Assembly (NCBI GenBank): GCA_002746305.1
Contig: NVWV01000005.1
Span: 205,126-269,125 of the forward strand
Reading direction: 5' to 3'
Origin: Bacteroidota bacterium
GTDB lineage: Bacteria; Bacteroidota; Bacteroidia; NS11-12g; UBA9320
Length of the DNA: 64,000 nt
The stretch's first letter is position 1, and the number at the start of each line of letters is the position of its first letter. This document shows positions 53,520 through 64,000 of the stretch, one piece after another. Both the position numbers and the translations under genes were made by a program. The notes under the pieces are model-generated. The model had not been told where the DNA came from. It was given only the letters and a program-made list of their open reading frames with translations, and ran no database searches.

Positions 53520-53594
53520 GGGAGCTTAGCTCAGTTGGTTTAGAGCATCTGCCTTACAAGCAGAGGGTCGCTGGTTCGAATCCAGCAGTTCCCA
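53520..53594 (+). tRNA. tRNA-Val (anticodon TAC)
   Basis: Folded by hand. The acceptor stem is GGGAGCT/AGTTCCC (one G·U). The D-arm is GCTCAGTTGGTTTAGAGC. The anticodon stem TCTGC/GCAGA has loop CTTACAA (anticodon TAC). The T-arm is GCTGGTTCGAATCCAGC with the GTTCGAATC box. Discriminator A; CCA is not encoded. 75 nt. Confidence 0.85.
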
Positions 53595-53616
53595 CATTGA
53601 ATATCAATCATTTACA

Positions 53617-53646
53617 GAGTCTCGCTTCGGCGGGACTTTTTTTATT
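53617..53646 (+). terminator. Rho-independent terminator after tRNA-Val (GTCTCGC-TTCG-GCGGGAC followed by T7)
   Basis: Read directly: a 7-bp stem with a GNRA-like tetraloop, immediately followed by TTTTTTTATTT. Confidence 0.7.
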
Positions 53647-53907
53647 TGCACACGATTTGCATAAAATTCTGTAAGTAAGTAGTAAGTATTCTTCATAGCT
53701 TTGTTTTACTATTTTTAGTGCAAAATGATTTGTAAGTTGATATATCTGTAGGTAAGGCCAAAAAAAATAGAAGCGCTAAGGTCTGTAATTGCTGTTTTTA
53801 CTGCATTAAGGGTGATGTTATCCCCTTTTGGGGATAGATGGTATACTCTTTTGGGGATGTCTTTATAATTAAAAAAGATAGTCTTTTGCATCTTTTAGAT
53901 TCTCAAT

Positions 53908-54864
53908 TTGTTTATTAAAGAAAAAACTATCGATGATTTATTGCTGTCTCTCTATACCAGTATTGAATTACAACCTAAATCAACAATTACAACATCTCGA
54001 GGAGAGTGTATCGAGGAGCTTGGTGTTTATCTTAAGTTAACTAATCCATTGTCCAGGGTTAGTTGGTCAGTTTCACGAGGTAAAGCTTTCAGCGCTCTTG
54101 GAGAATTTCTTTGGTATGTTTCAGGGAGTGATAAATTGGACTTTATTGAGTACTATATACCGAAGTACATTGATGAATCTACAAATGGTGAATCAGTTCA
54201 TGGCGCATATGGTAAAAGAATTTATTGTCAAGAATATTGTCAAATAGAGCAAGTAATTTCTTTATTATCCCAGAAACCAAATACAAGAAGAGCAGTTATA
54301 CAGCTATTTAAGGTCGAAGATCTAAATGTAGAACTAAAAAATATCCCTTGTACTCTTAGCCTTCAGTTTTTCATACGACATTCAAAATTGGATATGCATG
54401 TTTTTATGAGGTCAAATGATGCCTACAAAGGACTTCCTCATGATATTTTTTCATTTACTCTATTGCAAGAATATATTGCTCGAAGGTTAAATGTTGAGTT
54501 AGGTACATACAATCATTTCGTTTCGAGTATGCATGTATACAAATCAGATATTTCTAAAGTTAAAAAATACATTAGTGATGGATATCAATCTAGCTCAAGT
54601 ACTATGACTAAAATGCCTTTTGAAAAGCCTAAAGAAAATTTAGATATATTACTTTTATATGAGAGTAAAATCAGAAAAAAGGGCATTGCTAGCGCTAAGG
54701 GTATTAATGATTATTGGGCCGACTTAATAACTCTGTTAAACATGTATCGATGTTTTAAGGATAAGGATTCTGTTGAATTTGAAAGGCAAATGTCTCTTCT
54801 TAATAATACAGGTTATAGGCAGTTAGCAAAAGAAAAATTTTCACAATTGGTGGGTAAAATATGA
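53908..54864 (+). CDS. Divergent thymidylate-synthase-fold enzyme (pyrimidine-nucleotide C5 hydroxymethylase/methylase-like; not a canonical ThyA) with ~90-aa C-terminal extension
   Basis: Motif alignment to ThyA is clear. NIPCTLSLQFFI corresponds to LPPCHxxxQFYV (catalytic Cys conserved). RSNDAYKGLPHDIFSFTLLQ corresponds to RSCDVFLGLPFNIASYALL. SSMHVYKSD corresponds to GDAHIYSNH, so the ThyA Asn177/His region is altered and an Asp appears as in dCMP hydroxymethylases. It is far more divergent than housekeeping ThyA, which is nearly invariant in these motifs. Confidence 0.6.
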   Translation: MFIKEKTIDDLLLSLYTSIELQPKSTITTSRGECIEELGVYLKLTNPLSRVSWSVSRGKAFSALGEFLWYVSGSDKLDFIEYYIPKYIDESTNGESVHGAYGKRIYCQEYCQIEQVISLLSQKPNTRRAVIQLFKVEDLNVELKNIPCTLSLQFFIRHSKLDMHVFMRSNDAYKGLPHDIFSFTLLQEYIARRLNVELGTYNHFVSSMHVYKSDISKVKKYISDGYQSSSSTMTKMPFEKPKENLDILLLYESKIRKKGIASAKGINDYWADLITLLNMYRCFKDKDSVEFERQMSLLNNTGYRQLAKEKFSQLVGKI

Positions 54865-55778
54865 CAAAGAAATATGTAGAAATGTATGCTGAGGTTGACA
54901 AAGCAATACAGAAATGTAGCTCTGAAAGGCAAATGCCAGGACTAAATGATGAGGTTCGGAAAACTTTGAATTTACAGTTTGTAGATAGTATAAAGAGAAT
55001 AAAAATAATTGAAGTAATAGATAAAAAGGGAGTTGATGATACTTGTTTAAAACTGAATAGTGACACATTTAACCCTATAAAAGCCATTGCGTGGTATAAA
55101 AGTATTGGAAATTATAATGAGGCTATATGGTTGATTTTTCTGGTTACGCATTTTGGTAAGAACATAAATACAAATTGGAATTTGTTAGTTGATACGTATT
55201 CAGGAGCACGTGTAGATTCTATTTGGAATTGGGAAAGCACATCGACGGAGTTGGGAGATTTTTTGGATTGGTTGAATCTAAATGAAGGTAACCTTAAGAA
55301 AGTCGGAAAATTTGGAAATCATCGTAAATATCAGAGTATTAGTGCAGTCTGTAAAAATGGTACTGGTGACGCTTTTACGAGTTATATTAATTGGATTGGA
55401 GAAGATCGAGACCAACTGGCTAAATTACTCGAAGTAACTAATTCAGCTGGAAATTCGTTTGAAAGATTTGATATGCTTTATTCTGCAATAAAAAGAAATG
55501 TAAATTCGTTCGGTAGAATGGCCACTTTCGACTTTTGCACCATGCTTGGAAAGTTTCGACTTTTAGATATTGAACCGGGACACACCTATCTTGCTGGGGC
55601 TACTGGTCCAGTTTCAGGTTTGAAAACATTGTTCGGAAATAAAACATTAAAGGAATTGGATGAAGATGTTATGGTTCTATACCGAAACCTTAATCAGTTT
55701 TACGGTATGCAAATAATAGAAGATGCTATTTGTAATTGGCAAAAATCAACAGCAAAGTATAGATATTTTGGAGGTTAA
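54861..55778 (+). CDS. Unknown 305-aa Trp/aromatic-rich protein, translationally coupled partner of the thymidylate-synthase-like gene (candidate nucleotide/base-processing enzyme)
   Basis: An ATGA start/stop overlap at 54861-54864 indicates co-translation. No motif I can place. It is rich in W/F/Y and has conserved-looking segments (FGNHRKYQS, SFGRMATFDFCTMLGKF). It has no P-loop, HEXXH or Rossmann Gly-rich loop. Confidence 0.45.
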   Translation: MTKKYVEMYAEVDKAIQKCSSERQMPGLNDEVRKTLNLQFVDSIKRIKIIEVIDKKGVDDTCLKLNSDTFNPIKAIAWYKSIGNYNEAIWLIFLVTHFGKNINTNWNLLVDTYSGARVDSIWNWESTSTELGDFLDWLNLNEGNLKKVGKFGNHRKYQSISAVCKNGTGDAFTSYINWIGEDRDQLAKLLEVTNSAGNSFERFDMLYSAIKRNVNSFGRMATFDFCTMLGKFRLLDIEPGHTYLAGATGPVSGLKTLFGNKTLKELDEDVMVLYRNLNQFYGMQIIEDAICNWQKSTAKYRYFGG

Positions 55779-55784
55779 TCGTGA

Positions 55785-56855
55785 TTAAGAATCCAAAGAG
55801 AAAAAACGTTTGTAGCTATTGAGGTAACCTGGCTTTATTATCCCAAAATATTGCATTTGACCTACAACAATTCCCGGAGATATTCCTAGTTTACTTGCAA
55901 ACGCAATGATTTTTCGTTTGTTACTATTTAGTGTTCTTAATTCTTTGTGAAACTCATTTGGAATCAATACTTCCTGCGCAAATAGGTTAGCCTCATCTTC
56001 TTGTTCATTTATCGATTGCTCGATCTTTCGCTCAATTATGAAGTTGTCTTTTTTATGAAGAAAAATATGGCCTGCTTCATGAAAAAAAGTGAACCAAAAT
56101 TGATCATCGGATTTATATCTAAAACTTAATAAGATCATTGCTTTATCTGGTTTTATAAATCTTGTAGCCCCACTTTCAGTACATCCTTTAGGTGTCGGAA
56201 CTACGGCGACAGCAACTCCACATTCAGAACATATTTTTTTTAGTTCAGATATAAAAACACTTGGATTTTTTTTACGAGTAAGCTTTTTAATTTCTTGTAA
56301 TGCTAATTCAAATAATTCTTTATTAAAGGGCTTACAACTTAGTGCCTCACATTCTTTTTCACCTTGCCTTAACCATGTTGAAAGTGAAAATTCATTTGTC
56401 TGATAGGCTTGAGACGTCCTAAATGATATATTGGAGGTGTTAAGCACATAATGTTTTGACCATTCATGGATATTCTTAACGTTAAAAAAGTCTAAACATT
56501 CTTGAAAGGGATTATTTGACTCCCTTATCCAATTGTGCTTAAACATGTCTTTTAAAGGTAACTTCTTTAACCATTCAATTTGAGTAAGCCTATCAATACC
56601 ACTAATCTTATTTCTGTAATTAGCTTCTCTTTCAAGCCAAAAATTGGTAGATCCTCCAAGATGAATGGCTAAATGTTTTGATACTTCATTGTCTATGGTT
56701 ACTTCACTTCTCAATAATCTGCTTGTAAACTCAAACGTCCAGCCAGTTTTATGTGACAAGATTTGTGTAGATATTGATTTAAGTCTCATTAAATCAATAA
56801 TTGTACTCCCTGGACTTGAAGTCCAGTTTGGCTTAAAATTAACTTGATCTTTCAT
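55785..56855 (-). CDS. Fusion protein: N-terminal HigA-like XRE-family HTH domain + C-terminal ImmA/IrrE-family (DUF955, COG2856-like) HEXXH zinc metallopeptidase
   Basis: The HTH segment LKSISTQILSHKTGWTFEFTSRLLRSEVTIDNEVSKHLAIHLGGSTNFWLERE ends in the HigA-characteristic …FWL. The C-terminal FFHEAGHIFLH is the HEXXH motif of ImmA/IrrE peptidases, with the downstream Glu-rich region NEQEDEANLFAQEVLIP typical of the family. Confidence 0.6.
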   Translation of the reverse strand: MKDQVNFKPNWTSSPGSTIIDLMRLKSISTQILSHKTGWTFEFTSRLLRSEVTIDNEVSKHLAIHLGGSTNFWLEREANYRNKISGIDRLTQIEWLKKLPLKDMFKHNWIRESNNPFQECLDFFNVKNIHEWSKHYVLNTSNISFRTSQAYQTNEFSLSTWLRQGEKECEALSCKPFNKELFELALQEIKKLTRKKNPSVFISELKKICSECGVAVAVVPTPKGCTESGATRFIKPDKAMILLSFRYKSDDQFWFTFFHEAGHIFLHKKDNFIIERKIEQSINEQEDEANLFAQEVLIPNEFHKELRTLNSNKRKIIAFASKLGISPGIVVGQMQYFGIIKPGYLNSYKRFFSLDS

Positions 56856-57144
56856 TGGCTTTATTTATAGCTACTACTTTTATTCTACTTTCTTCGTATT
56901 CTTTGTTTAAGTCTTCTCTTAGAATCTCTACTGTTAAACTATATTCTAAATCTAGTTTAATTTCTATTAGTGTCTTGCTTAAACGGTTGATAGGAAATGG
57001 GAATTCATTAAAAGTGTTGACACTCAATAAATCAGATATTCTATTTTTTATTTGGGTGGCAATAGTAATACCAAACATTTGTTCTGCAATATCGGTGTTT
57101 TCACAAACATCTCTAATTTTTTTGTCCCCAAATGACAATATCAA
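56839..57144 (-). CDS. HigB-like toxin candidate (RelE/ParE superfamily) upstream of the HigA-like HTH-peptidase gene
   Basis: The size is small (≤101 aa; alternative start MFGIT… gives 78 aa). The toxin-first order and 17-nt overlap with the HTH gene are typical of higBA. The N-terminal ILSFGDKKIRDVCEN resembles the HigB opening (I-K-S-F-x-x-K-x-L). This is a weak, by-eye similarity only. Confidence 0.3.
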   Translation of the reverse strand: MILSFGDKKIRDVCENTDIAEQMFGITIATQIKNRISDLLSVNTFNEFPFPINRLSKTLIEIKLDLEYSLTVEILREDLNKEYEESRIKVVAINKANERSS

Positions 57145-57382: not shown

Positions 57383-59536
57383 TTATCTAAGCACTTCTAT
57401 TTTTTGACTTCCTGTATTCCCATCTTCATCTGTGAGACTAAGAATGTAATTTCCTGCTGTCAGTGTGGTGTGAATTGTAATAAGTGAAGAGTTCTTGGAT
57501 TTCTGAGTATATGCTAGCTTACCATTCATGTCAAGTATCTTAATGTTTACATTCAGTTGTTCATTGCCCAGTTCAATAGAGATGTTCCCATCACTTGGAT
57601 TTGGATAGATTTTGAATGGTAGACTATTGATTTTAGGAATTGAAGCAAAATCTACCAATAGACTATCGCTCAATTCACTTTCACAACCATACTCGCTCAC
57701 CAGTTGAACTTGCCAGTAACCATTGCTATCTGGGTCTAATCTTCTTTCTGTTGTTTCAAACTTAGCTACACCATCTCTGTACCATCTGTAGGTATGGGCC
57801 AGAGTGTTACTCACTACACTGTCTTTAAAGCGACTTATAAGGGACTTATTGGGATTTGGATATTCTGCAATGGTAAGTGTATCCCATGCTTGGCAAAAGG
57901 TCTTATTGGTAACCTTAATCCTATATACTCCTGCTGTATCTGCAATTAGAGTATCTGCATTAACCCCCTGAAAATGGTCGTAGTCTATTATAGGTCCGAG
58001 GGCATTATCTAGGTTAGGCTCTTCTATAGGTCCTTTGTCACCCCAATGCACACAATGCATATTGGCAGGAGCTTGGAGAACGAGATTGATAGAATCACCA
58101 GTACAGTAAAAAGTATCAGTACCGAGCATATTCAAATCCCACTTGGGATGAATGGTTAAAGTTTTAGTTACGGTATCTGTTCTGCTTCCAATAGTAGCAA
58201 AATGGCTCACTTGCCACTTTCCCGTGTCGGGGAAGGAGTAATTACAATGCTTAGTTAAACTACTGTCTTTGAAGTTACTAACCCCCACTTTTTGAAAACA
58301 CCATTTCCATGAAGTGGCTTGTAATGTATCTCTTCCTTCAAAACTGTAAGAATGACCCCAACAATCTTCGGTGTATGCAAAGTCTATGCTGGGTGTATAG
58401 AAGTAAGAAGCATTGAAGTTAGGAAGGCCGTAAGAAACTATTCTGTTGGGTATTTTATAATGTCTTAAATCTAGACCTGAATTGTTTCCTTGTAAGTTTG
58501 GATATTTAATAACCGATAAATATGAAGAATCTGGGATTGCACCATATATAAAACCATTACTGTAATTCTGAAGTGCCATGTTGGAAAAGGTGTTTTGAGC
58601 GGTCCACAAGATTGTTTTAGAATTATGAACGGAATCAATATTCAAGTTGGATAAGTCGTATTGAATTAGATGTCGACCTCTTTCAGAAGAATAAAGTTTT
58701 GTTTCATCAGGTGAAAAAACACTGTGTATCGGCAACCATAATTTTTGGGAACTCAGTATATAATCAATTTCACCAGTAGAATTATTAAACTTATATAACT
58801 CCACTATTCCATCAGCATTAAACTCATTGAGAGAATATATGGTCAATGCAAGCATTTTGCTTGACGCAGAAAAGGTTAGACTTCCTGCAGCATTTGAGCC
58901 TTTATTTCCAATGTAGTTTTGCGATTCGAAATTTTTTGGACAAATAGGGTCTTGATTGTCACGAATAAGAAAAATATAGCCCTTCTCAGACTTAAACTTA
59001 TGTAAGACTAACCAATTATCTTTTTGATTAGCATGTTTAACTATGCTTTGCATTTCGCAAACTGGGCTCAATATTTTTTTATCTCCTATTTTTACTCCAT
59101 CCTTAAAAGTATAAACATTTGCACCATTTGTTCCTCCAATATCGGTTGTAGTAATTACATTAATAATAGAGTCATTTCCTGAAATTAATACCCCTTGCAC
59201 AGAAGATTTATCTCCCTTGAGTGTTGAAATAATATTGAAATTACTATCATATAAGTTTGCTGCATCAGAGTAGTAAAGCAATTTTCCAGTTTTACTTGAA
59301 AAGGAGGAATATGCTTCAGACGTGTGTACATTCGAGGTGCTGACTATTATCGAATCATCAAAATTTAATAGAATGCTGTCGCCAAAAGTCCAATGCTTGG
59401 TTCTCAAAAAATCGGGATTAGTTTCAGGAATTTGGGCAAATGAGCTTATGTTCAATAGTAAAATTAAACTGAGCAATGTGGATTTCATCAACTGAGGCAT
59501 GTTATAAAGATATGTAACCTGAATCTTATGTTGCAT
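57383..59536 (-). CDS. Secreted protein with T9SS C-terminal sorting domain (beta-propeller/Ig-like cargo)
   Basis: The C-terminus (FKIYPNPSDGNISIELG…GNYILSLTDEDGNTGSQKIEVLR) is a type-A T9SS CTD. The signal peptide is likely at the internal start MKSTLLSLILLLNISSFAQ (about 59488), which would remove the 11-nt overlap with the upstream HTH gene. Confidence 0.55.
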   Translation of the reverse strand: MQHKIQVTYLYNMPQLMKSTLLSLILLLNISSFAQIPETNPDFLRTKHWTFGDSILLNFDDSIIVSTSNVHTSEAYSSFSSKTGKLLYYSDAANLYDSNFNIISTLKGDKSSVQGVLISGNDSIINVITTTDIGGTNGANVYTFKDGVKIGDKKILSPVCEMQSIVKHANQKDNWLVLHKFKSEKGYIFLIRDNQDPICPKNFESQNYIGNKGSNAAGSLTFSASSKMLALTIYSLNEFNADGIVELYKFNNSTGEIDYILSSQKLWLPIHSVFSPDETKLYSSERGRHLIQYDLSNLNIDSVHNSKTILWTAQNTFSNMALQNYSNGFIYGAIPDSSYLSVIKYPNLQGNNSGLDLRHYKIPNRIVSYGLPNFNASYFYTPSIDFAYTEDCWGHSYSFEGRDTLQATSWKWCFQKVGVSNFKDSSLTKHCNYSFPDTGKWQVSHFATIGSRTDTVTKTLTIHPKWDLNMLGTDTFYCTGDSINLVLQAPANMHCVHWGDKGPIEEPNLDNALGPIIDYDHFQGVNADTLIADTAGVYRIKVTNKTFCQAWDTLTIAEYPNPNKSLISRFKDSVVSNTLAHTYRWYRDGVAKFETTERRLDPDSNGYWQVQLVSEYGCESELSDSLLVDFASIPKINSLPFKIYPNPSDGNISIELGNEQLNVNIKILDMNGKLAYTQKSKNSSLITIHTTLTAGNYILSLTDEDGNTGSQKIEVLR

Positions 59537-59892: not shown

Positions 59893-62800
59893 ATGATGAA
59901 AAAATTATCTTATTTTTCGATTGTACTATTTCTTTTTCTAAGTAGTCTTTCCCATGCACAAAACACGTCTTGTTCCTTTGATGAACAACTCGCTCGGTAT
60001 CAACAAGCAGACCCAATCGGCTATACAATGAGCAGAGCTGCTCATGTAGCTGCGGTAAAACAGTACCGAGCTAGCCACCCAAACACTAACCATCTTCTCA
60101 ACTCGAACCAAACGGGCAATAGCAATGCACTATTGGGCGGTTCGTGTGACAGTGCCAAATATATTCTCCCTGTAGTGATTCATGTCATTCACGATCCATT
60201 GGATACATTGGGAAGCGGGAGTAACATCAGTCACGCACAAATACAAAATCAGTTGGAAGAATTGAATCACGCCTTTGGCAACTACTATATGCCGCATGGT
60301 CCTAGTTCTGTAAACACTGGAATCAAATTTTGTTTGGCACAAACTCGACCTGATGGTTCTAGTTTCAACGGCGTGAACCGTATCGCTAGTAGCCGCAGTA
60401 CACATCCCCGTTGGGAAGAAGATAGCTTACTAGCATTAATACACTATCCAACGGATAAGTACATCAACATCTTTGTGGTAGATAAAATAATAGATAGCAC
60501 AGGAAACAATGGAGGGGTGCTAGCTTATGGTAGCTACCCGTATTGGGGCAGTAGAGCAAGTGACCTCATTGTCATCCGTCATGATTGGTTTGGAAAATAT
60601 ACCTCCTCACTACCTGCATTGGATGGTTTAGCAGAAGGCAAAGTATTGGCCCATGAAATGGGACATTATTTGGGTTTGTTTCATCCCTTTGAGGGTGGTT
60701 GTACTGGTACAAATGCTAACGATTGTATGAGTAAGGGAGATATGTGTTGTGATGTGCCTGCCGTTGCTGCTGATGTAAATGGAGGGTGTAACAGTGTAAA
60801 CACCTGTTTTGAGAGCTATAGCAGTAATCCACCCGACCAAAAAGAAAACTACATGGACTATAGCTACCCCAGTTGTAAAAACACCTTCACCGCCGACCAA
60901 GCAGATGTAATGTACACCACATTGGAAGGTATACGAAGTAGTTTGTGGAATCCGACCAGTATCAATTCGCTCAATCTGTCGTGCTGCATTAACTCAGCCC
61001 AGTTTATAGGGCATACCGATGGGTGTAACATAGATAGTTTGAACTTACAGGCTTATGCCTATTCGGGTGGAGCTTCATACACATGGAATTTTTATAAAAA
61101 CGGAAGTTTATTTAAAACAGAAACCGTCACTACATCTGTCTATCAAGTGTTACTGGACTCAGGCAACTACGATGTACAACTGACCATTACCACAGGAAGT
61201 CAAAGTTTTAGTAAACTGGTAGAGAATGCAATGACTATTTACAAATGCGATAGCTTATTACCCAGTACACAAGGTTCATGGTATTTCGGGCATAATGCAG
61301 GAATGCGGTTTTATGATAATGGCTTGGTATTAAAGGATATTGAACCTTGGAAAAATCAAGTCCCTACTCAAATCAATTCAGGAGGTGCAACCCTGAGTAT
61401 GAGTGATAGTATGGGTGATTTATTGTTTTATGGTGGAGCAGAGTATATCAATAGTAACCTAAGAATCTTTGATTCAGACTATAAACAAATGAAGGGTAGC
61501 CCGATACTGGGAGACTTTAATGCAACCCAAGGAGCAGTTACCATTCCAGTACCCACTAGTGATAGTTTATACTACATCATTCATACGGACAAAGCGGGTA
61601 GAAGTCCGTTTTATTCGATTATTGATATATCCATAGGTATAGATAGTATTATCTCAAAGAATGTATCCATAACAGGACCTGTAGGTGCAGGGGGCTCTAC
61701 AACTATTGGGCAACTAAAAGAAGGTCTTACCTGTATCCCAAAATGCGGGAATGAAGACTACTGGGTCTTGTTGAGTAGGTACGATACCAGTACAGGTAAT
61801 TCATCCATTGTGAAACTCATTGCTGCAAGTGATACGATTACCTATCATTCGGCACAGAACGTTCCTAACATGGAAGTAAGTGCTAGTATGGTAGTTTCTC
61901 CAGACGGTAAGCTAGTGACTATCGGTAATCATTTGTATTCTTTTTGTAACTCTGATGGTAATCTTACGCTCATAGAAACAGATAGTAGTGATTTTTTAAT
62001 ATACTCGTTAGCTGCATCCTTTTCTCCCAATAGCAAACTTCTTTATCGTCTAGAGTACTATTTTGATCCAGGCTTTGCGTTCTATCCCAAAGAACATAAT
62101 TATCTACTCCATCAAATAGATCCTTATGCGGTATCTCCTGTTAACACTAAAATACTTATTAAAGAAACAGAATACCACCGCTATATGCAGTTAGCTCCCA
62201 ACAACAAGATTTATATGTCCGTTCTAAACGGAGCTTTACCCTATGTTTCATCCATTAATGATCCCAATGCTCGAATTCAGGATAGTTCGCAGTTTGATTA
62301 TACCGAAGAATCCGTATTTACTATAAAGAATGGTATTGGAGGGATGTCACAAGGAATAACCAATCATATCAATGCCAAAGCCTTGGTAGACTTAGATACC
62401 AATTTTGTGATTCGAGAAATGAGTTGCTTTACCAAACGATTTTTACCAAGCACCTGTTGTGCATCTAGTTATTACTGGAATTTCGGAGATGGGACTACCA
62501 GTACCAGTATGGAAATAGAACATACATATGCCGACACGGGTTGGTATGATGTAAGTCTAGTAATGAATGGTTCAGATACAATCACCAAAAGAATCCGAGT
62601 GGGTATTTCACCTGAGAGTTTAGAAATACAAGGAACAGATGTATTCTGTACTTCTAACTCCCCCATCTTGTATTCTGTCCTCTTTGATGCAGATTACAGC
62701 TATTCTTGGACCGCTACAGGTGCTTTAGGTCAAAGCAGTACCGATGAGCGACAAACTGAGGTTACATGGCAAGATTCGGGAATACTCAAAGTAGTAGTCA

Positions 62801-64000
62801 CCGATAAAATTACCGAGTGTACGGATTCCAATGAAATAAAAGTGTACCGACAGGATTTTGTACCTGTAGACTTTGAATACAGTTCTGAGAACTGTGCAAC
62901 ATTTGTCTTTGAAACCTCACATCATTGCGATAGTTCCTATTACTGGAATTTTGGAGATGGAACGCTAGACTCTACCCAAAACACACTGCACACCTATTCA
63001 GATACAGGGTACTACCAAGTACAATTAATCTCAGGTGGAGATACGGTTAATAAATCCATCTATGTAGGTATGCTTGCAAGTGATTTGGTACTGACTGGTG
63101 CAGCTACCAATTGCGACGATACAGCATTCTATAATTATGCTGTTCCTTTTAATCCTAACCATACCTATACGTGGAGTAGTACAGGAACAGATTTGTTCTC
63201 ATCTACGGATAATAGTGCTGTTACCAAGTGGCTCAGTACTGGAACAATTGAAGTCATTATTTATAACACTATCAATTCTTGTACGGATACTATAGGAATG
63301 GATGTTACTAAAAACTTACCTGAATTAGATTTTGCGTTTAGCTCTTCCAATTGCAAGGATGTTCAGTTTACAACCGATTACTATTGCGGACTACCCATAA
63401 AATGGATTTTTGGTGATAGTACTATTTGGGATATTCCTAAAACAAGCTCCATTCAAAACCCTATCAACACATACGCAACTGGGAGAACATACTATGCCAG
63501 TTTAGTGGTAAATGGAGATACGATAACTAAGAAAATAGTAGTAGGATCAGAGTCCATTAGCGTATCAGGATTGCCCAATCCAATCTGTGATACCAGTCAA
63601 TTTTATGAAATGACAATAGATAATTACAACCCTGCGACGACCTATACATGGGGCTCTTTTGGAGATTCCGTTTCAGTAGTTAATGATTCCACCTATTCCA
63701 TAAAGGTGTCGGGGAACTTTACCAGTAAAGGCTTTTTTGCACAAAGCGTAAATTCATGTGTTAGTAGCTATGATTTGACCTACACGGTATATACAGGCTT
63801 GCCTTTTATGAATCCTCAAATAACGGGGACAACTATCTTTTGTGACACATCGAAGGTTAATCCATATAGTGTTCCTAACGATCCCTATCAATATGCATGG
63901 TCGGTAAACAACAACAGTATACTAATTGCTGGAGCATCGGATAATGAGGTTTCGGTAAAATGGAGAGCAAATGGACAACTTAAAGTGGTTATTTCAGATC
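59893..64000 (+). CDS. Giant secreted M43-family (pappalysin/cytophagalysin-type) zinc metalloprotease followed by tandem PKD-like repeat modules; 3'-partial (runs off window end); absent from the ORF track
   Basis: Translated manually with no stop through 64000 (>1369 aa). Signal peptide MMKKLSYFSIVLFLFLSSLSHAQ. The metzincin motif is HEMGHYLGLFHPFEGGC (HEXXHXXGXXH). There are repeated ~140-aa units each containing SYYWNFGDGT (PKD WxFGDG motif) plus a second Cys-containing module (TYTWSSTGTD…). G+C is visibly higher than the surroundings across about 60.0-61.2 kb. Confidence 0.75.
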   Translation, partial: MMKKLSYFSIVLFLFLSSLSHAQNTSCSFDEQLARYQQADPIGYTMSRAAHVAAVKQYRASHPNTNHLLNSNQTGNSNALLGGSCDSAKYILPVVIHVIHDPLDTLGSGSNISHAQIQNQLEELNHAFGNYYMPHGPSSVNTGIKFCLAQTRPDGSSFNGVNRIASSRSTHPRWEEDSLLALIHYPTDKYINIFVVDKIIDSTGNNGGVLAYGSYPYWGSRASDLIVIRHDWFGKYTSSLPALDGLAEGKVLAHEMGHYLGLFHPFEGGCTGTNANDCMSKGDMCCDVPAVAADVNGGCNSVNTCFESYSSNPPDQKENYMDYSYPSCKNTFTADQADVMYTTLEGIRSSLWNPTSINSLNLSCCINSAQFIGHTDGCNIDSLNLQAYAYSGGASYTWNFYKNGSLFKTETVTTSVYQVLLDSGNYDVQLTITTGSQSFSKLVENAMTIYKCDSLLPSTQGSWYFGHNAGMRFYDNGLVLKDIEPWKNQVPTQINSGGATLSMSDSMGDLLFYGGAEYINSNLRIFDSDYKQMKGSPILGDFNATQGAVTIPVPTSDSLYYIIHTDKAGRSPFYSIIDISIGIDSIISKNVSITGPVGAGGSTTIGQLKEGLTCIPKCGNEDYWVLLSRYDTSTGNSSIVKLIAASDTITYHSAQNVPNMEVSASMVVSPDGKLVTIGNHLYSFCNSDGNLTLIETDSSDFLIYSLAASFSPNSKLLYRLEYYFDPGFAFYPKEHNYLLHQIDPYAVSPVNTKILIKETEYHRYMQLAPNNKIYMSVLNGALPYVSSINDPNARIQDSSQFDYTEESVFTIKNGIGGMSQGITNHINAKALVDLDTNFVIREMSCFTKRFLPSTCCASSYYWNFGDGTTSTSMEIEHTYADTGWYDVSLVMNGSDTITKRIRVGISPESLEIQGTDVFCTSNSPILYSVLFDADYSYSWTATGALGQSSTDERQTEVTWQDSGILKVVVTDKITECTDSNEIKVYRQDFVPVDFEYSSENCATFVFETSHHCDSSYYWNFGDGTLDSTQNTLHTYSDTGYYQVQLISGGDTVNKSIYVGMLASDLVLTGAATNCDDTAFYNYAVPFNPNHTYTWSSTGTDLFSSTDNSAVTKWLSTGTIEVIIYNTINSCTDTIGMDVTKNLPELDFAFSSSNCKDVQFTTDYYCGLPIKWIFGDSTIWDIPKTSSIQNPINTYATGRTYYASLVVNGDTITKKIVVGSESISVSGLPNPICDTSQFYEMTIDNYNPATTYTWGSFGDSVSVVNDSTYSIKVSGNFTSKGFFAQSVNSCVSSYDLTYTVYTGLPFMNPQITGTTIFCDTSKVNPYSVPNDPYQYAWSVNNNSILIAGASDNEVSVKWRANGQLKVVISD

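Follow-up and report, generated by a model that had tools for sequence, protein, structure and literature searches.

The window analyzed here is a 64-kb stretch of DNA from a Bacteroidota bacterium. It contains a cassette of four intact ORFs, identical across three metagenome samples, the first of which encodes a protein with a thymidylate synthase fold (TS-like). The locus is laid out as follows.

53520..53595, forward strand: tRNA-Val(TAC), reported by ARAGORN, 310 bp upstream of the cassette and a possible landmark of island insertion
53616-53639: terminator-like hairpin after the tRNA-Val
53762..53780 (left arm) and 57387..57405 (right arm): 19-nt inverted repeat bracketing the four-gene cassette, 17/19 complementary
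53814..53858, forward strand: two 22-nt direct repeats in tandem (GATGTTATCCCCTTTTGGGGAT / GATGGTATACTCTTTTGGGGAT), a candidate operator or promoter element lying 50-95 nt ahead of the TS-like start
53908..54864, forward strand: TS-like gene (318 aa, intact ORF with a TTG start), a MilA-like enzyme of the thymidylate synthase fold and a predicted dCMP C5-hydroxymethylase; key residues Cys148, Glu66, Tyr101, Arg127', Arg168-Ser169-x-Asp171, Asp179, His209, and Tyr211; helical C-terminal domain at residues 241-317
54861..55778, forward strand: aGPT-Pplase clade 3 / amino-acid:DNA-transferase homolog (Pplase), with a helix-hairpin-helix glycosylase-like fold; overlaps the TS-like gene by 4 bp (ATGA)
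55785..56855, reverse strand: fusion of a HigA-like HTH and an M78 (ImmA/IrrE) metallopeptidase (356 aa; HExxH is His259-Glu260-x-x-His263), convergent with the enzyme genes
56839..57144, reverse strand: small ORF (101 aa) overlapping the HTH-M78 start, from a conserved family of ~105 aa, possibly HigB-like

Given the AT-richness of the sequence, the 19-nt inverted repeat is of borderline significance. No att-like copy of the tRNA-Val 3' end in direct orientation turned up downstream of the cassette. Within the window, TTTGGGGAT is found only at the two places of the tandem repeat, and no exact copy lies at the start of the HigB-like gene. An operator shared by the TS-operon and HigB-like promoters was also considered and discarded, the k-mers common to both being no more numerous than in shuffled controls (58 loci).

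The TS-like ORF is real and has the thymidylate synthase fold. Gene callers report the identical 318-residue protein in three independent metagenome samples, and its N-terminus agrees with those of its family. Pfam analysis returns Thymidylat_synt (PF00303; E 2.7e-25) for residues 62-225 only, and the protein misses all NCBIfam ThyA equivalog cut-offs (91.2 bits vs 174.55, and 81.7 vs 327). In databases, all members of the family go by the name "thymidylate synthase" and bear the GO term dTMP biosynthesis. Residue mapping, checked against the published numbering, indicates that the ThyA catalytic set, i.e. the Cys, Glu58, Tyr94, and Arg166-Ser167-x-Asp169, is retained as Cys148, Glu66, Tyr101, and Arg168-Ser169-x-Asp171, which together with Asp179 are invariant in 201/201 homologs. 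Asp179, within the segment GLPHD179IF, occupies the base-specificity site, equivalent to T4 Asp179 and MilA Asp186; in E. coli ThyA this residue is Asn177, which recognizes uracil O4/N3, and the N177D change is a published determinant of dCMP specificity. The sugar determinants are of the deoxy type. Ser and Arg in place of MilA Ala176 and Lys133 are reported to select deoxyribose, the MilA A176S/K133R double mutant having lost CMP activity in favor of dCMP, and the window protein possesses Ser169 (201/201 in the family) and Arg127 (190/201, Lys in the other 11). The residues known from dCMP hydroxymethylases, an Asp at the Asn177 site with Ser167 and Arg126', are therefore all present as Asp179, Ser169, and Arg127. 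Taken together, the invariant residues form a cytosine plus 2'-deoxy signature, which predicts dCMP as the substrate.

The residues that control the fate of the one-carbon unit are less uniform. Three positions before the catalytic Cys (E. coli L143, T4 D145), a change from Leu to Asp or Glu is a published determinant of the hydroxymethyl product, bulky hydrophobic residues have been linked to methyl products, and the carboxylate of T4 deoxycytidylate hydroxymethylase (dCH) activates water, the D145N mutant being inactive. The family has Asp or Glu at this position in 183/201 members (91%), whereas the window copy has Asn145. The Ser/Thr found two residues before the catalytic Tyr in dCMP hydroxymethylases of the T4 type is replaced by Gly99 (Gly in 189/201). 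A D169N change, which yields 5-hydroxy-dCMP in synthases of the RB69/DLP3 type, is absent; although enzymes of the AfhB/RB69 type are among the fold matches, this product is ruled out by the invariant Asp171. The family probably makes 5-hydroxymethyl-dCMP, as judged from these residues; for the window copy, efficient formation of this product is favored by a narrower measure, because of Asn145.

The preliminary description of this gene had pointed to the strings NIPCTLSLQFF, RSNDAYKGLPHDIFSFTLL, and SMHVYKSD, all of which are present, although the nucleophile motif reads P-C-T and not P-C(H). It took SMHVYKSD for the uracil-recognition region and deduced the loss of the recognizing Asn by comparison with the ThyA D-A-H-I-Y-S-N-H segment. 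This assignment does not hold: the segment provides His209 and Tyr211 of the sugar 3'-OH motif (E. coli H207/Y209), the missing Asn is E. coli N211 (HLYSNH), which does not recognize the base and whose site is hypervariable within the family, and specificity resides in Asp179. The conclusion drawn from it, a cytosine-type hydroxymethylase, is nonetheless supported, and the list of candidate substrates (dCMP, CMP, or dUMP) narrows to the cytosine type, with CMP disfavored because of the Ser169/Arg127 deoxy signature.

The closest relative of known structure is MilA, the CMP 5-hydroxymethylase of the mildiomycin pathway of Streptomyces rimofaciens (PDB 5b6d/5b6e/5jnh/5jp9). It ranks first in the PDB both in sequence (phmmer E 1e-40, residues 13-289, ~30% identity) and, when the predicted model (pLDDT 89.7) is compared, in structure, with a TM score of 0.87-0.90 over the full length and ~325 columns in Foldseek, whereas ThyA structures match the core of the model alone (TMq ~0.58). 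The fold shared with the CMP hydroxymethylases MilA and BcmA includes the C-terminal five-helix domain. The hydrophobic Leu143 and the folate-closing C-terminal tail that ThyA uses for hydride transfer are replaced by Asn145 and by this MilA-type helical domain. The extra ~90 C-terminal residues, rightly described at first as having no ThyA counterpart, are not unprecedented, since they align in sequence with the MilA C-terminal domain and superpose on it; a tail is also found in DS-4A and in homologs from ViI-like phages, Bacillus phage G, and a Mycobacterium phage. The TS-like gene thus encodes a cytosine-type hydroxymethylase-like enzyme and not a housekeeping thymidylate synthase. That its substrate or reaction should differ from thymidylate synthesis, as originally proposed, is borne out by Asp179, by the proximity to MilA, and by the sporadic, mobile distribution of the family.

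The obligate association of this gene with those for an aGPT-Pplase3 and a HigA-M78 module does not figure in the preliminary description and is the most informative fact about the locus. To our knowledge, the aGPT-Pplase/transferase family comprises the only enzymes that graft amino acids onto DNA bases. Its clades were reportedly defined by Iyer et al. in 2013 and Burroughs et al. in 2015. Pfam analysis of the window Pplase reports matches to aGPT-Pplase3 and ADDT. A Glu287-Asp288-x-x-Cys291-Asn-Trp-Gln-Lys motif is at least 95% conserved; its E-D-x-x-C spacing is that of the PUGT active site (E243-T244-x-x-C247), an equivalence that holds at the motif level only, and it recalls the essential Cys and Glu of clade 2. 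As in the aGPT-Pplase/AADT pathways, the TS-family enzyme has a neighbor of the aGPT-Pplase/AADT family in which a Cys is conserved, with a Glu close by; the 5-hmdU DNA kinase and the uracil-type (dUMP) hydroxymethylase of these pathways are missing. Sequence searches with the Pplase or its family profile against solved structures returned no match, and a fold search alone succeeded. A tblastn search of 50,697 sequenced phage genomes returned no match either.

The third gene encodes an Xre/HigA-type HTH fused to an M78 peptidase with a conserved HExxH motif, as in PD-lambda-2, a validated abortive-infection system of E. coli made of a HigB-like A, an Xre-HTH-peptidase B, and a component C. It is matched by Pfam Peptidase_M78 (E 2.6e-12), PADLOC PD-Lambda-2_B (E 7e-31), and HigA structures (E 0.003). 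The small ORF precedes the M78 gene in 69/72 loci; it is at most tentatively HigB-like, with a single sub-threshold Pfam match (HigB-like_toxin, E 0.0046) and no PDB sequence match. Other Bacteroidota copies of the cassette contain a further gene, gene X, which is absent from the window. Gene X was considered as a relative of uracil-DNA-glycosylases on account of its GLNPSNREF and NHNiQSS motifs, and this was rejected, as Pfam, PADLOC, and PDB searches gave no match and hhalign against E. coli MUG gave a probability of 0.2%. PADLOC does not match the TS-like protein or the Pplase either.

The TS-like gene opens a cassette of four to five genes that is widespread and moves horizontally. In the assessable genomic loci it is always followed by the Pplase gene (75/75), and the M78 gene comes next in about 72/80 (E 1e-57 to 1e-117); a search seeded with the Pplase recovered the same arrangement in 26/26 loci on viral contigs. 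The cassette spans at least 10 phyla. The TS-like family is found in ~0.2% of species genomes and on mobile elements. Ten plasmids (conjugative plasmids among the carriers) and 27 viral contigs bear the cassette, and on P1-like phage-plasmids it lies beside darA/ddrA/ddrB of the dar anti-restriction operon. Neighbors at individual loci include an integrase with Gabija and AbiJ, IS elements with an AAA_15 ATPase, a Bil-like system, and, at another locus, two Mrr nucleases, a PIN protein, and PycTM. The flanks are otherwise heterogeneous and often housekeeping (148 flanking ORFs, in which 136 Pfam families are represented), and the window locus has no defense neighbors. The cassette encodes neither a dNMP kinase nor a 5-hmdU-type DNA kinase, and neither is a recurrent flanking gene. 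Their absence leaves hm-dCMP without an evident route to DNA, and its hydroxyl without an evident activation as a leaving group, which counts against the explanation that we favor.

This explanation is a cassette of a dCMP hydroxymethylase, a Pplase, and a HigB/HigA-M78 pair acting in conflicts with phages or mobile elements; taken as a whole, we give it even chances. The TS-like enzyme would use methylene-tetrahydrofolate and the Cys148 thiolate to place a one-carbon unit on C5 of dCMP, producing 5-hydroxymethyl-dCMP and no dTMP. The Pplase, which is translationally coupled to it and is a Cys-dependent homolog, with a helix-hairpin-helix fold, of the amino-acid:DNA transferases known from phages, would activate the 5-hydroxymethyl pyrimidine through attack of Cys291 at C6 and exchange the hydroxyl for another group, on either a nucleotide or DNA. 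The convergent HigB-like/HigA-HTH-M78 pair, of PD-lambda-2-like architecture, may control or execute the response, and the whole cassette would serve in phage or mobile-element conflict, either as an anti-phage defense or by modifying the DNA of the invader or of the element. The integrases, IS elements, and defense genes beside some copies, the carriage on plasmids and phage-plasmids, the PD-Lambda-2_B match, and the precedents of DS-4 and of a predicted defensive aGPT-Pplase system (see below) speak for the conflict setting. A role in defense is somewhat short of an even bet. Whereas the analysis establishes the protein fold, the residues for catalysis and specificity, the linkage of the genes, and their mobility, the reaction product, what the Pplase acts on, and the part played by the cassette are inferred. 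More tentatively still, we suggest a nucleotide-modification immune or conflict module in which a bacterial dCMP hydroxymethylase and a first cytosine-directed, kinase-independent aGPT-Pplase produce a C5-hypermodified deoxycytidine; this product might act on the replicating DNA of an invader, as a poison or as a mark, or signal the release of the PD-lambda-2-like HigB/HigA-M78 switch, the enzyme pair replacing the third component of PD-lambda-2. Such a specific scheme is possible, if rather doubtful.

Alternatively, the cassette could hypermodify the DNA of its own carrier (bacterium, plasmid, or phage-plasmid) with a 5-hydroxymethylcytosine-derived base as a means of anti-restriction, akin to phage thymidine hypermodification. 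The family of the partner, which hypermodifies phage DNA, and the location of the cassette beside the dar operon, on viral contigs, and on conjugative plasmids argue for this. We nevertheless hold it to be unlikely: no dNMP kinase would take hm-dCMP to the triphosphate, nor is there a DNA kinase, the Pplase has no match among the sequenced phage genomes, many copies, including that of the window, are chromosomal without element genes, Mrr-type modification-dependent nucleases adjoin the cassette in some loci, and the TA-like module would be left unexplained.

Less probable again is a dCMP methylase producing 5-methyl-dCMP, or a catalytically weakened enzyme in the window copy. Asn145 at the site of the water-activating carboxylate, where the T4 D145N mutant is dead, and the absence of the T4 Ser/Thr signature ahead of the catalytic Tyr are in line with it, as is the lack of gene X, by which the window cassette may be derived or decaying. 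However, Asp or Glu prevails at this site in the family, Asn is polar and unlike the bulky hydrophobic residues tied to methyl products, the ThyA C-terminus that closes over the folate for hydride transfer is replaced by a MilA-type domain, none of the four ORFs is interrupted or differs between the three samples, and the partner belongs to a family acting on hydroxymethyl-derived substrates.

The likeness to MilA and BcmA raises the case of a ribonucleotide (CMP) hydroxymethylase in a small-molecule pathway, with the partner acting as a nucleotide hydrolase or transferase that sets free a modified pyrimidine serving as an antimetabolite or as a signal. We regard this as quite improbable, since the ribose-selecting Ala176 and Lys133' of MilA give way to the deoxy signature (Ser169 invariant, Arg127 nearly so), no MilB/BcmB-type N-glycosidase, methyltransferase, or other biosynthetic gene recurs nearby, and the family is distributed like a mobile conflict module. 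An ordinary but divergent thymidylate synthase making dTMP, as public annotation and the Pfam TS domain have it, is hardly credible given the invariant Asp in place of the uracil-recognizing Asn, the widely missed ThyA equivalog cut-offs, a match to ThyA structures confined to the core, and a family restricted to a small fraction of species genomes and to mobile elements.

Genes labeled "thymidylate synthase" whose residues point to dCMP as the substrate are thus present in several hundred bacterial species, plasmids, and phage-plasmids. Should the pair be active, hypermodification chemistry would reach beyond thymine to cytosine and beyond phages to bacteria, and a compact, two-enzyme route to C5-derivatized deoxycytidine would be at hand. 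Because of the invariant link to a PD-lambda-2-like module, the hypothesis of an immunity based on nucleotide modification is directly testable.

Among known systems, MilA resembles the window protein most. The two share the Tyr-Trp motif of the helical C-terminal domain, the Cys nucleophile, the Glu, the Tyr, the His/Tyr sugar contacts, the Asp at the base-specificity site, and P-C-T instead of P-C-H. They differ in the ribose-type Ala176/Lys133' of MilA as opposed to the deoxy-type Ser169/Arg127, in the residue three before the Cys (Asp in MilA, Asn in the window copy), and in their setting, MilA belonging to an antibiotic cluster with MilB and the window protein to a mobile cassette that also encodes an aGPT-Pplase3 and a TA-like pair. 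The deoxycytidylate hydroxymethylase gp42 of phage T4 would share substrate and chemistry with the window protein; both have Asp179, the Ser equivalent to Ser169, an Arg at the dimer-partner phosphate site, and a Thr after the Cys, and both lack a folate-closing tail. However, gp42 (246 aa) is devoid of the C-terminal helical domain, is only remotely similar in sequence, has Asp145 and Ser94, both missing in the window copy, and is accompanied by phage dCTPase, dNMP kinase, and glucosyltransferases.

The thymidine-hypermodification pathways of phages ViI, M6, PaMx11, SP10, and PhiW-14, composed of a dUMP hydroxymethylase, a dNMP kinase, a 5-hmdU DNA kinase, and an aGPT-Pplase/AADT, likewise join a hydroxymethylase of the TS family to an enzyme of the aGPT-Pplase family, and PaMx11 gp46 has its fold and a Glu-x-x-x-Cys motif in common with the window Pplase. 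In contrast, the cassette hydroxymethylase is of the cytosine type (Asp), the ViI-like and DS-4A homologs having Asn; the cassette is devoid of both kinases, is bacterial, and is tied to a TA-like module; its Pplase belongs to clade 3, without relatives in sequenced phages; and Asp288 stands where PUGT has Thr244. DS-4, validated as an E. coli defense system following DefensePredictor analysis, combines a TS homolog with a dNMP kinase, a 5-hmdU DNA kinase-like protein, TIR, and Nmad2. DefensePredictor also predicted an aGPT-Pplase system and a 326-aa E. coli "thymidylate synthase" (WP_000174035.1) to be defensive. DS-4 offers the precedent of a bacterial, protective, long TS-family hydroxymethylase with an Asp three before the Cys and a C-terminal extension, but DS-4A is 29% identical and of the dUMP type (Asn), and the system relies on kinases and a TIR effector, with no aGPT-Pplase or M78 module. 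Lastly, PD-lambda-2 differs from the cassette in that the cassette small ORF is weakly HigB-like and the P4-antitoxin-like component C is replaced by two convergent nucleotide- or DNA-modifying enzymes, whereas the HigA-type HTH-M78 architecture and the small ORF upstream of it are common to both.

TS-like, the product of the first gene of the cassette, is a thymidylate-synthase (TS)-fold enzyme that keeps the whole catalytic set and carries a dCMP signature. It is encoded by the following ORF:

53908-54864, + strand: TS-like ORF, intact, TTG start, 318 residues

Three independent metagenome samples yield the identical protein, and its N-terminus aligns with those of its homologs. The Pfam thymidylate-synthase domain matches residues 62-225 only (E 2.7e-25; profile positions 54-225 of 266), and TS-like scores far under all curated ThyA equivalog cut-offs. 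A sequence search of solved structures reports MilA, the CMP 5-hydroxymethylase of mildiomycin biosynthesis, as the best relative (E 1e-40, residues 13-289), ThyA chains giving weaker hits (E 1e-16 to 1e-11 at best). The AlphaFold model, with 28 family sequences as input, is confident (pLDDT 89.7, pTM 0.91) and superposes full-length on MilA (TM 0.87-0.90, about 325 columns), whereas ThyA structures match its core only (TMq about 0.58). The sequence strings quoted in the preliminary description are all found in the ORF, but the C-terminal tail, taken there for an extra without ThyA counterpart, is a MilA-type domain, since the MilA alignment spans most of it, the superposition covers it, and the MilA paper describes the same region as five helices away from the active site, required for solubility. 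Its (Tyr)-Trp motif is common to DS-4A (the TS homolog of the DS-4 defence system), ViI-like phage enzymes, Bacillus phage G gp319, and a Mycobacterium phage homolog.

Base and sugar specificity were read from an alignment of the window protein with 27 homologs, MilA, E. coli ThyA, and T4 gp42, the latter two both giving the published residue numbers. Asp179 occupies the position of E. coli ThyA Asn177, T4 gp42 Asp179, and MilA Asp186, and is thus of the cytosine type, as had been proposed, though from another residue: the uracil-recognizing Asn was sought in the ThyA "HLYSNH" motif, while the actual Asn177 sits in "GLPFN", and the family is hypervariable at the residue indicated, Ser213 (E. 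coli Asn211). Published mutants bear on this position, Asn-to-Asp turning TS to dCMP and Asp-to-Asn turning the T4 enzyme away from it. Regarding the sugar, Ser169 and Arg127 correspond to E. coli ThyA Ser167 and Arg126' and to MilA Ala176 and Lys133'; in MilA, the double mutation A176S/K133R abolishes activity on CMP and makes dCMP the preferred substrate. Cys148, Glu66, Tyr101, Asp171, His209, and Tyr211 are retained in the window protein, and the catalytic and specificity residues are kept in all 201 family sequences. In published work, a hydrophobic residue at the Leu143 position accompanies methyl products and Asp/Glu hydroxymethyl products, and D169N marks 5-hydroxy-dCMP synthases. Of the 201 sequences, 97 have Glu and 86 have Asp at the position equivalent to Leu143. 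Because the invariant residues and this Asp/Glu majority match the published assignments, the family bears a dCMP hydroxymethylase signature. The window copy alone has Asn (Asn145) there, and T4 D145N is inactive; the T4-type Ser/Thr preceding the catalytic Tyr is Gly in the family.

TS-like is obligately coupled, genetically, to a Cys-type aGPT-Pplase homolog and a HigA-M78 module. Its stop codon lies in a 4-bp overlap with the start of the Pplase gene (305 residues; aGPT-Pplase clade 3, E 7e-73; amino-acid:DNA-transferase family, E 2e-53). Two downstream genes are encoded on the other strand and run toward the enzyme genes: one encodes a 356-residue protein with a HigA-like HTH (E 0.003 against HigA structures) and an M78 ImmA/IrrE peptidase domain, matching the PADLOC model PD-Lambda-2_B (E 7e-31), and its start is overlapped by a 101-residue ORF. 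When each species was represented by a single genome, relatives turned up in 338 species of at least 10 phyla. Among the best 80 loci, on which linkage was counted, the Pplase gene follows in 75, the other five contigs stopping before its position; the HTH-M78 gene is convergent downstream in about 72, with a small-ORF homolog in 69 of these 72. An independent Pplase-seeded search reports 27 viral contigs, and the 26 complete ones all have the same TS-like and M78 neighbors. One Hyphomicrobiales locus (L057, 2864-3232) retains only a Pplase fragment, its M78 gene being undetectable, and is apparently a decayed cassette. In 48 of the 80 loci, a gene X of about 265 codons stands between TS-like and Pplase (L004-L080; 10985-11806 in L018); its product has invariant ATxGxNPSxxE, HxDxxPxxT, and GxNxNxQSS motifs and no match in Pfam, PADLOC, or the PDB, and it is absent from the window cassette. 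The 148 flanking ORFs of 38 loci represent 136 Pfam families, each in at most three loci; nothing recurs outside the cassette, which is therefore self-contained. Neither a dNMP kinase nor a 5-hmdU-type DNA kinase accompanies it.

The model of Pplase is likewise confident (pLDDT 92.2). Clade 2 enzymes depend on a Cys for the attack on C6 and on a neighboring Glu; in gp46 of phage PaMx11 (Glu243-Thr244-x-x-Cys247), Glu and Thr hold a metal contacting thymine O4. The family motif Glu287-Asp288-x-x-Cys291-Asn-Trp-Gln-Lys, at least 95% conserved, has equal spacing, with Asp replacing Thr. As no sequence-level alignment to gp46 was obtainable, the equivalence holds at the motif level only. An Asp by the base 4-position would suit the cytosine amino group. 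A tblastn search of 50,697 phage genomes with the window Pplase gave no match.

The cassette is horizontally mobile. One copy accompanies a tyrosine integrase, Gabija, and AbiJ; others lie with IS elements and an AAA_15 ATPase (Leptospira), a Bil-like ubiquitin-type system (Ralstonia), or two Mrr nucleases, a PIN protein, and a Pycsar-type effector. Proviral contigs carrying it contain integrases and transposases, and it is found on 10 plasmids, five of them conjugative. On a 118-kb viral contig it occurs close to each end, as would be seen if a circular genome had been assembled with overlapping termini. In P1-like phage-plasmids it adjoins the darA/ddrA/ddrB anti-restriction operon; its location between a restriction endonuclease gene and ddrB/ddrA/darA (L125, Pantoea agglomerans pFC61912-B_D; L107/L108) suggests a cargo hotspot. 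The window cassette lies between housekeeping-type genes, with no integrase there, and is preceded or bracketed by the following:

53520-53595, + strand: tRNA-Val(TAC), 310 bp upstream of the cassette
53616-53639: terminator-like hairpin after tRNA-Val
53762-53780 and 57387-57405: 19-nt inverted repeat (17/19), bracketing the four-gene cassette almost exactly
53814-53858, + strand: tandem 22-nt direct repeat with CCCCTTTTGGGG-type hairpins, just upstream of the TS-like start

tRNA genes are frequent island insertion sites; no att-like repeat was found for tRNA-Val. The inverted repeat could be a remnant of the ends of a mobile unit, or chance in AT-rich DNA. The tandem repeat, to which TTTGGGGAT is unique within the window, may be an operator. 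Further downstream (~59900-64000, + strand), GC climbs from about 0.34 to 0.41 across a very large Peptidase_M43/PKD-repeat gene (>2200 codons) that runs past the window end; the preceding 717-residue protein carries a Por_Secre_tail sorting domain of the T9SS, which fits a Bacteroidota host.

We propose that TS-like would make 5-hydroxymethyl-dCMP, and that Pplase, acting on a nucleotide or DNA, would activate the 5-hydroxymethyl pyrimidine via Cys291 and swap the hydroxyl for another group. The toxin-antitoxin-like pair (HigA-M78 and small ORF) would control or execute the response. Modification of the DNA of the host or of the element that carries the cassette is a live, if rather improbable, rival. 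Two precedents lead us to favor a role in conflict with phages or mobile elements. In PD-lambda-2, a HigB-like/Xre-peptidase architecture can confer abortive-infection defence, the peptidase fusion being toxic alone and a third component being needed for defence. DefensePredictor validated DS-4, a different system that contains a TS (TS, dNMP kinase, 5-hmdU kinase-like protein, TIR, and Nmad2), and its predictions include an aGPT-Pplase system (prediction only). This conflict role is held tentatively because the kinases are absent and the flanks heterogeneous.

A Pfam clade and this machine-learning prediction show that computational workers had already seen the family; our literature search, which did not extend to the founding papers, found no paper describing or testing the cassette. 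Two phage homologs are of note. In our alignment, Mycobacterium phage Zenon gp78 (L097, 2827-3831) carries Asn at the D169 as well as the N177 position, a combination not among the described ones we found; since it joins a 5-hydroxy-type substitution to a uracil-type specificity residue, it may be a 5-hydroxy-dUMP-type enzyme. Bacillus phage G gp319 (L096, 1426-2472; 348 residues) has the dCMP-hydroxymethylase signature of the bacterial family and its C-terminal domain, with a putative dCMP deaminase two genes away. Among known systems, DS-4A is of the uracil type and shares only 29% identity with the window protein. The latter looks like MilA but is devoid of its Ala/Lys ribose signature and gene cluster, and is predicted to work like T4 gp42 but without its acidic residue and Ser signature. 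Lastly, the enzyme pair resembles those of phage thymidine hypermodification pathways, whereas the cassette is cytosine-type, kinase-less, and bacterial.
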